From NCBI RefSeq assembly GCF_001898115.1, contig NZ_MKSQ01000015.1:6274-70273 (forward strand): a stretch of DNA of 64,000 bases. Direction: 5' to 3'. The DNA is from Bosea sp. 67-29. Lineage in GTDB: Bacteria; Pseudomonadota; Alphaproteobacteria; Rhizobiales; Beijerinckiaceae. A program made the translations under genes and the position numbers. Within the stretch, counting starts at the first letter, position 1; each line of letters opens with the position of its first letter. The notes under the pieces were generated by a model. It was not told the DNA's origin and made no database searches. It saw only the letters and a program-made list of their open reading frames with translations. This document shows positions 44,245 to 45,148 of the stretch, piece by piece.

Positions 44245-44481
44245 ATGGCCCGTGTTGAGAGCATTGAGATGGGCTCGTCAGAAGGAGCCCTTCACCCAAG
44301 CACTGTCCGTGCACGGGTGAAAATTTTTGGAGATGGAACCAAAGGCCCCATCATCCAGATCGATACATTTGGCTCTGCGGATCGCGAAATTCCCGGAAAG
44401 CTCAGTCAGACGATCCAATTCGACAGAGATACTGGCCAACAGCTGCTAGCGATCCTTCAGCGGACATACGGAAACAAGTAA
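44245..44481 (+). CDS. Small hypothetical protein (78 aa), AT-richer
   Basis: Fills the gap between two genes; IQIDTFGSADREIPGKLSQTIQFD looks like a structured domain; atypical codon usage. Confidence 0.6.
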   Translation: MARVESIEMGSSEGALHPSTVRARVKIFGDGTKGPIIQIDTFGSADREIPGKLSQTIQFDRDTGQQLLAILQRTYGNK

Positions 44482-44500
44482 GTAGCGGCTTGCGACCGCC

Positions 44501-44995
44501 CTACACCCGCCGCAGCTTGTTGTAGCGGGCGATCAACCTATCGCGCTTGAGCCGCGAGAGGCGATCGATCCAGAAGACGCCGTCGAGCTGGTCGATCTCG
44601 TGCTGATGGCAGACGGAAAGCAGGCCCTCCGCCTCCTCGACCTGCTCTGCCCCGTCGAGATCGCGGTAGCGCACCCGCACGCGGGCATGGCGTTCGATCT
44701 CATCGGTCACGCCCGGCATCGAGACGCTGCCCTCGACGTGGCGGATAGTCTCGCGCGAGACCGAGTCCAGTACGGGATTGACGTAGGTCCGTACGCTGCC
44801 CGGCACCAGCTCCAGCACCACCAGCCGCAGCGAAACACCGATATGCGGCGCGGTGATGCCGATGCCGGGCGCTTCCCGCATCGTGTCGAGCAGATCGGCC
44901 GCAAGCTCGCGCAGATCGGCATCGAAGCGCGTGACGGGTGCCGCCGCCACGCGCAGGCGCGGATCGGGAAAGCTCAGGATCGGCCGCGACGGCAT
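44501..44995 (-). CDS. Peptide deformylase-like protein, probably inactive
   Basis: PDF fold motifs degenerate: GIGITAPH, EGSVS, HEIDQ. Confidence 0.88.
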   Translation of the reverse strand: MPSRPILSFPDPRLRVAAAPVTRFDADLRELAADLLDTMREAPGIGITAPHIGVSLRLVVLELVPGSVRTYVNPVLDSVSRETIRHVEGSVSMPGVTDEIERHARVRVRYRDLDGAEQVEEAEGLLSVCHQHEIDQLDGVFWIDRLSRLKRDRLIARYNKLRRV

Positions 44996-45148
44996 AGGCT
45001 TGTTCCGACTTCCTGCTTGCATCCCCGATTCCGAGCTTCACGGAACCGGCCCCTCCGGCAAACCGCTTCCCGATGTTATCCGGAAGCGCATCATGCGATC
45101 GAACGGCGACAGGCGCCTCGCGAGCCTGCCGCCGATTCGACGGCGAGC

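Follow-up and report, generated by a model that had tools for sequence, protein, structure and literature searches.

A conserved peptide deformylase paralog of Bosea and other Alphaproteobacteria with replaced metal ligands and a new motif 1 histidine

A paralog of peptide deformylase (PDF) in Bosea sp. 67-29 was found to have discarded the cysteine and one of the histidines that bind the catalytic metal and to have moved a histidine across the site, with the general base, the substrate groove and the ribosome anchor all retained. PDF, an essential enzyme, serves as an antibiotic target; its Fe-Cys centre is known to be vulnerable to oxidative, nitrosative and zinc stress. We regard the paralog either as a natural experiment in the rebuilding of a metalloenzyme centre or as a dedicated binder of nascent N-termini, and we tentatively favour a cysteine-free rebuilt catalytic centre that would act on nascent N-termini. 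The gene lies in a stretch of 64,000 nucleotides, which is referred to below as the window.

The gene and its three motifs

The coding sequence of the 164-residue paralog occupies positions 44501..44995 on the minus strand, running from an ATG at 44995-44993 to a TAG stop codon at 44503-44501, which is included in these coordinates. Judged by profile matches its homology to PDF is unambiguous and well above chance: Pfam PF01327 scored 144.6 bits (E 2.5e-42), TIGR00079 113.6 bits and the full-length NCBIfam model NF009484 260.6 bits (cut-off 190; model positions 1-164 of 165). An alternative in-frame ATG upstream at 45022 would lengthen the protein by 9 residues. Because the NF009484 model begins Met-Pro-Ser and nearly all homologues have 164 residues, 44995 is the likely start, and the assumption of this start in a preliminary description of the window was likely right. 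Directly 3' of the stop codon a weak terminator-like hairpin, a consensus match only, was located at 44484..44500 on the minus strand.

Direct translation gave GIGITAPH for motif 1 (residues 44-51, 44843..44866), EGSVS for motif 2 (residues 88-92, 44720..44734) and HEIDQ for motif 3 (residues 132-136, 44588..44602), all on the minus strand. In a HMMER residue alignment the PDF of P. aeruginosa (1n5n, 8s1x) has GIGLAATQ, EGCLS and HECDH opposite these motifs; translation and alignment together confirmed the motif readings of the preliminary description. From residue 88 on the paralog's own numbering equals that of E. coli PDF. In motif 1 His51 stands for E. coli Gln50 and Thr48 for Ala, in motif 2 Ser90 stands for the metal ligand Cys90, and in motif 3 His132 and Glu133 are retained and Gln136 stands for the metal ligand His136. 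In E. coli PDF Gln50 stabilises the oxyanion, and Cys90 and His136 are ligands of the metal. Since Cys90, His136 and Gln50 are replaced by Ser90, Gln136 and His51, this sequence cannot build the canonical Cys-His-His metal site. What sets the paralog apart is this apparent swap of a ligand from motif 3 to motif 1, along with the Cys-to-Ser exchange. Motif 3 runs on into LDGVFW (44570-44602 by direct translation of both), which ends in Phe141-Trp142 (44570..44575, minus strand), an invariant pair that is specific to the family; canonical PDFs mostly have Leu-Phe here. The motif definition of EC 3.5.1.88 asks for Gln50 in motif 1, Cys90 in motif 2 and the second His in motif 3. The paralog carries another residue at each of the three positions, and it should therefore not be classed among the functional peptide deformylases.

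A family with a fixed signature

The best NCBIfam match, NF009484 (PRK12846.1-5), is labelled 'peptide deformylase' with the grade equivalog, and UniRef calls some of its members 'Peptide deformylase-like'. The existence of a dedicated model and of such names bears out the earlier statement that deformylase-like paralogs are known in Alphaproteobacteria. By its sequence the paralog is an ordinary member of NF009484, a family already catalogued.

A representative library of 1.84 billion proteins was searched and the best 150 matches were examined. Among the clearly full-length sequences of these 150 only two motif states were present, Q/C/H-E-H (113 sequences) and H/S/H-E-Q, and no intermediate combination was detected; the H/S/H-E-Q state reached down to 43-45% identity to the query. 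Three library representatives of 331-336 residues matched the query in two separate stretches; in the aligned part their motifs are canonical, and they resemble two PDFs joined in tandem.

An alignment of 53 family members, spanning many genera, with 80 canonical PDFs revealed that His51, Ser90, His132, Glu133, Asp135, Gln136, Phe141 and Trp142 are conserved in 100% of the members. At the position of His51 the canonical PDFs have an invariant Gln. Further switches fixed in the 53 members versus the 80 canonical sequences are M35L, A48T, L91V and V93M, besides L141F and F142W at the family-specific pair. Groove and scaffold residues common to both groups are G46, E88, G89, S92, P94, R102, C129, Q131, L137 and G139. 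Across family sequences that are 41-91% identical to the window protein 17 columns are invariant, and the window protein carries the full signature of His51, Ser90, His132-Glu133, Gln136 and Phe141-Trp142. Of another 240 cluster representatives, 239 carried the signature, the sole exception having an internal deletion.

In a maximum-likelihood tree of 154 PDFs the 53 family rows, including the window protein, formed one clade (SH-aLRT 100) on a stem of 0.38 substitutions per site, with a median of 0.08 for internal branches. The midpoint root of this tree is placed on the stem of the family itself and singles out no sister group among canonical PDFs. In the order-level search canonical Cys/His/His defs scored up to 197.5 bits on NF009484 and true members 209-286 bits; at a cut-off of 190 the model therefore does not cleanly separate both kinds. 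We concluded that the database name 'peptide deformylase, equivalog' is probably wrong for this family.

Predicted structure

AlphaFold2, run on a family alignment of 50 sequences, predicted the fold with a mean pLDDT of 96.6 and a pTM of 0.90. A Foldseek search of the PDB with this model returned peptide deformylases only, the best being of type-1B (TM 0.93-0.95, rmsd 1.1-1.5 Å over about 164 columns), and on the E. coli and Pseudomonas PDFs the model superposed over its whole length (164 columns). The predicted fold is that of a complete type-1B PDF, including the C-terminal helix. This helix, predicted for residues 148-163 (44507..44554, minus strand) with pLDDT above 89, is the counterpart of the ribosome-docking helix of type-1B PDF, which has been described as a ribosome-binding element (bioRxiv 10.1101/2022.04.20.488877). 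Its basic residues are conserved among the 53 members (R151 in 98%, R153 in 92%, K160 in 92%), and the conservation of its Arg and Lys residues is at least that in canonical PDFs. In a sequence search of the PDB the best match was a canonical PDF (128 bits), and no solved structure of a family member was found.

Host genome and distribution

The assembly (4.86 Mb, 29 contigs) contains two PDF-family genes. The second one, on another contig (C16), encodes a 179-residue Def with the motifs GIGLAAIQ, EGCLS and HEIDH and lies directly upstream of fmt; its product and the paralog are 41% identical (BLASTP). Housekeeping deformylation is thus already covered by a canonical def-fmt pair, and the window gene is therefore an accessory paralog. 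It has no linkage to fmt and is flanked by an aminotransferase gene and an SDR/LysR pair. Linkage of def to fmt is common, not universal, for functional PDF genes.

Within the genus the paralog is nearly core, being present in 35 of 41 genomes with the frame intact in 34 of the 35 copies. At the level of the order about 42 of 301 genomes had it, always beside a second, canonical PDF match, and at the level of the class 11 of 401, including six other taxonomic families. A phylum-level sample gave no copy outside the window's own order. The gene is retained in three genomes of 2 Mb that belong to one genus, and in none of the samples searched was it the sole PDF of a genome. The family is patchy across Alphaproteobacteria and confined to one class among the genomes searched. 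We consider the paralog dispensable, because it is absent from about 85% of the order genomes sampled and interrupted by a premature stop codon in one same-genus genome.

Gene neighbourhood and upstream regions

The closest database matches of the paralog, at 91-96% identity, carry the name Bosea, and the gene order aminotransferase, paralog, SDR, LysR is maintained in the nearer species of the genus. Regions of 12.5 kb round 20 family members from different taxonomic families were clustered all-against-all. No partner gene was conserved in these 20 loci; the only recurring items were antisense shadow ORFs and generic ABC ATPase and LysR genes. An SDR-LysR link, seen alike at the Bosea and Tistrella copies, was rejected as the two SDRs are just 24% identical. 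In one lineage the family member has another context: in S. meliloti (CP090106.1) it is divergent beside mgtE, a magnesium transporter gene, with a MerR-family regulator just beyond, and this arrangement was seen in that lineage only.

Upstream regions of 220 nt from 46 members were scanned for Irr/ICE, RirA/IRO, Zur, Fur, EcfG, RpoH and sigma-70 patterns, none of which was recurrent, and no promoter-like site was detected upstream of the window paralog. The scan neither supports nor contradicts metal or stress control of the gene. PADLOC gave no defence-system match for the locus. We concluded that the paralog is a catalogued variant of a well-known enzyme, for which the gene context gives no functional clue.

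Between the class-III aminotransferase gene and the 3' end of the paralog there is a 78-residue ORF (44245-44481, plus strand), contained in a 240-bp stretch with a G+C content of 0.55, compared with about 0.67-0.70 around it. This ORF had no Pfam or PADLOC match and was not found in the 18 same-genus genomes searched; the stretch holds an orphan gene or else is a non-coding insert.

Selection and history

In 14 pairs dN/dS was 0.10-0.35, which indicates purifying selection. The Ser90 codon was AGC or AGT in 43 members and TCG or TCT in 3; as both AGY and TCN codons are used, the serine has persisted although the codon class changed. When both proteins were compared across one set of 20 genomes, the mean pairwise identity was 57% for the paralog versus 65% for Def, the paralog being lower in 87% of the pairs, and the pairwise identities of the two proteins were loosely congruent (r = 0.48). 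In some pairs the paralog was the more similar protein; between the Bosea genome and a genome of another family, for instance, it reached 74% identity and Def 66%. Pairs of this kind hint at lateral transfer. Copies on plasmids or megaplasmids were found in Mesorhizobium, Aminobacter, Acuticoccus (NZ_CP094832.1, 80 kb) and Tistrella (pTM2); some of the Mesorhizobium plasmid copies were split or fragmentary, with 65-76% of the query covered. One same-genus orthologue has an in-frame TAG at codon 144, a position at which Gln or Asp is usual in the family. This stop removes the C-terminal helix, and the frame beyond it still reads RLSRLKRER...; it arose from a recent nonsense mutation or else from an error in sequencing. 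The window gene is intact, under selection and not decaying, and the coupled, invariant replacements, together with the retention of His132 and Glu133, argue against simple decay.

A separate observation concerns histidine codons: that of His51 (window 44843-44845) was CAT in 33 of 39 members despite their G+C-rich genomes, and that of His132 was CAC in 34 of 46.

A rebuilt centre or a binding protein

The preliminary description had offered two options, a binding pseudo-enzyme and a rebuilt site to which the change from Gln to His would contribute a ligand. This framing held up, and the coupled invariant changes together with the retention of His132 and Glu133 mildly favour the second. The cysteine-free rebuilt centre is the reading that we put forward, with less than even confidence, because the three exchanges occur together and have become fixed, the catalytic Glu has been retained and the new His occupies precisely the position of the oxyanion Gln. 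In the proposed mechanism the C-terminal helix would still dock at the ribosomal exit, and the groove (Gly46, Glu88, Gly89, Cys129, Gln131) would take nascent (formyl-)Met N-termini. His51, His132 and Glu133 would form the core of the rebuilt centre, and Ser90 and Gln136 would be partners offering O and N atoms, giving either a thiolate-free metal site with N/O ligands alone or a metal-free acid-base site. The product would be a conditional or low-rate amidase of the deformylase type, which would have no Fe-Cys centre sensitive to oxidation, NO or zinc.

Several observations bear on this proposal. Motif-deviant accessory PDFs are common, and the authors of a survey propose that such proteins may use other cofactors under oxidative stress (PMC12690207); catalytic residues can 'migrate' in apparent pseudoenzymes (PMC10211241). 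Retention in 35 of 41 genus genomes at a stable locus, and in the three 2-Mb genomes, counts in its favour, and Glu133 and His132 are counted for a rebuilt catalytic centre because both are invariant and would not be needed by a pure scaffold. Against the proposal, the faster evolution of the paralog relative to Def and its dispensability may be held, as may the fact that neither a neighbour in 20 loci nor an upstream motif in 46 members points to stress control. Ser and Gln bind Fe2+ or Zn2+ poorly, which counts against a metal site. Since every paralog-bearing genome of the order sample keeps a canonical def, deformylation by the paralog is not implied by its presence. In Salmonella PDF Cys90 is required for activity and is the target of NO (PMC7683392), which is counted for a cysteine-free centre; the C90S variant of that PDF is non-functional (PMC7683392), which speaks against it. 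A literature search yielded no paper on the function of the family or its EGSVS/HEIDQ motifs and no experimental data for any member.

Close behind, also with less than even confidence, comes a form of the other option of the preliminary description: a non-catalytic pseudo-enzyme that hydrolyses nothing and instead holds N-termini with formyl-Met (or Met), occupies the uL22 docking site of the ribosome, or does both. Such a protein would protect or mark part of the nascent chains, or be a competitor of Def and Met-aminopeptidase (MetAP), and its invariant Ser/His/Gln/His/Glu set would form a hydrogen-bond network that replaces the structural role of the metal and holds the ligand. The loss of two of the three metal ligands argues for it, and so do the inactivation of a canonical PDF by C90S alone (PMC7683392), the constant presence of a canonical def beside the paralog in the order sample and the competition of PDF and MetAP for overlapping ribosomal sites (PMC13234167). 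For S. aureus and S. pneumoniae the motif-deviant accessory PDFs have been reported to be inactive (PMC12690207). The conserved groove and C-terminal helix are in keeping with a binder as well, and from the alignments this conservation fits the rebuilt centre equally. An invariant general base, Glu133, and a new His at the oxyanion position nevertheless exceed what binding would be expected to need, and no partner gene is conserved alongside in the 20 loci.

We consider it unlikely that the paralog is a substrate-switched hydrolase that works off the ribosome and has a specific peptide or a small compound with an N-formyl or N-acyl group as its substrate. Invariant family changes round the pocket (A48T, L91V, V93M, L141F, F142W) would suit such a switch, and the accessory, patchy distribution with some plasmid copies is typical for catabolic functions. 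The 20 loci, however, share no conserved metabolic neighbour, the SDR-LysR neighbours of Bosea and Tistrella being related at no more than the family level (24% identity), and the ribosome-docking helix is conserved as in Def or more. An outside chance is given to a silent formyl-methionine 'reader' that docks at the ribosomal exit, captures fMet chains and passes them to a protease or marks them. If this were true, the paralog would be a bacterial fMet/N-recognin component, of a kind that a 2026 review still lists as unidentified (PMC13234167). An equally novel possibility is that a metallo-amidase has become a metal-free Ser90-His enzyme.

That the paralog is an ordinary, fully active peptide deformylase with neutral motif changes is very improbable. 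The NF009484 label says as much, and PDF activity tolerates some motif variation, as in the A48S Def2 of Vibrio and the type 3 PDFs of T. brucei (PMC12690207). Here, however, the changed residues are the metal ligands themselves and not their neighbours, C90S being inactive (PMC7683392); all of the 113 other full-motif representatives (113/113, best 150 matches) retain Q/C/H, and the paralog gene stands apart from fmt. The label itself is weakened by canonical defs, which pass the cut-off of 190 with 197.5 bits. A decaying duplicate, a pseudogene in progress with no function, is hardly credible and is, by the sequence conservation, effectively refuted: the TAG at codon 144 in one same-genus genome, the fragmentary copies on Mesorhizobium plasmids and the loss of the gene from many lineages are outweighed by dN/dS of 0.1-0.35, 17 invariant columns at 41-91% identity, a confident fold and a frame intact in 34 of 35 genus copies.

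Whether a rebuilt centre or a binder, either answer would explain why the paralog is retained in nitrogen-fixing and soil bacteria such as Bosea, Bradyrhizobium, Microvirga, Mesorhizobium, Sinorhizobium and Shinella, and either would correct the name that NF009484 now bears.

Comparison with known peptide deformylases

The nearest known system is the type-1B Def (EC 3.5.1.88; E. coli 1bs4/1xen, P. aeruginosa 1n5n), with which the predicted model of the paralog shares the whole-length fold at TM 0.93-0.95; in structure-based alignments the identity to Pseudomonas PDF is 41-42%. Both have the groove residues, His132, Glu133, Asp135, Gly139 and a basic C-terminal helix. The paralog differs from type-1B Def in the family-wide replacements Cys90 to Ser, His136 to Gln and Gln50 to His and in A48T, L91V, V93M, L141F and F142W, and also in that it is not beside fmt, is accessory and evolves faster.

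The 'type 3' PDFs (DefA of S. aureus and S. pneumoniae, archaeal and trypanosomatid proteins) are likewise extra copies with motif substitutions and are reported to be weakly active or inactive (PMC12690207, PMC5591237). The paralog is unlike them in its type-1B-like fold and sequence, in the catalytic Glu that is kept and in the new motif 1 His. It scored below the cut-offs of the inactive PDF-like families of staphylococci and streptococci, with 77.7 bits on NF011189 (cut-off 232) and 47.7 bits on NF006670 (cut-off 162), and by these scores membership in either family was ruled out. In the staphylococcal PDF-like protein, too, the Cys has become Ser and the second His has become Gln, but the Glu is gone and Gln50 is still present. 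Conserved extra PDF genes of Alphaproteobacteria are also represented by the clustered and disabled copies of Rhodobacterales (PMC12690207). Those copies sit in def clusters beside fmt, whereas the NF009484 paralogs stand alone, with neighbours that vary between families.
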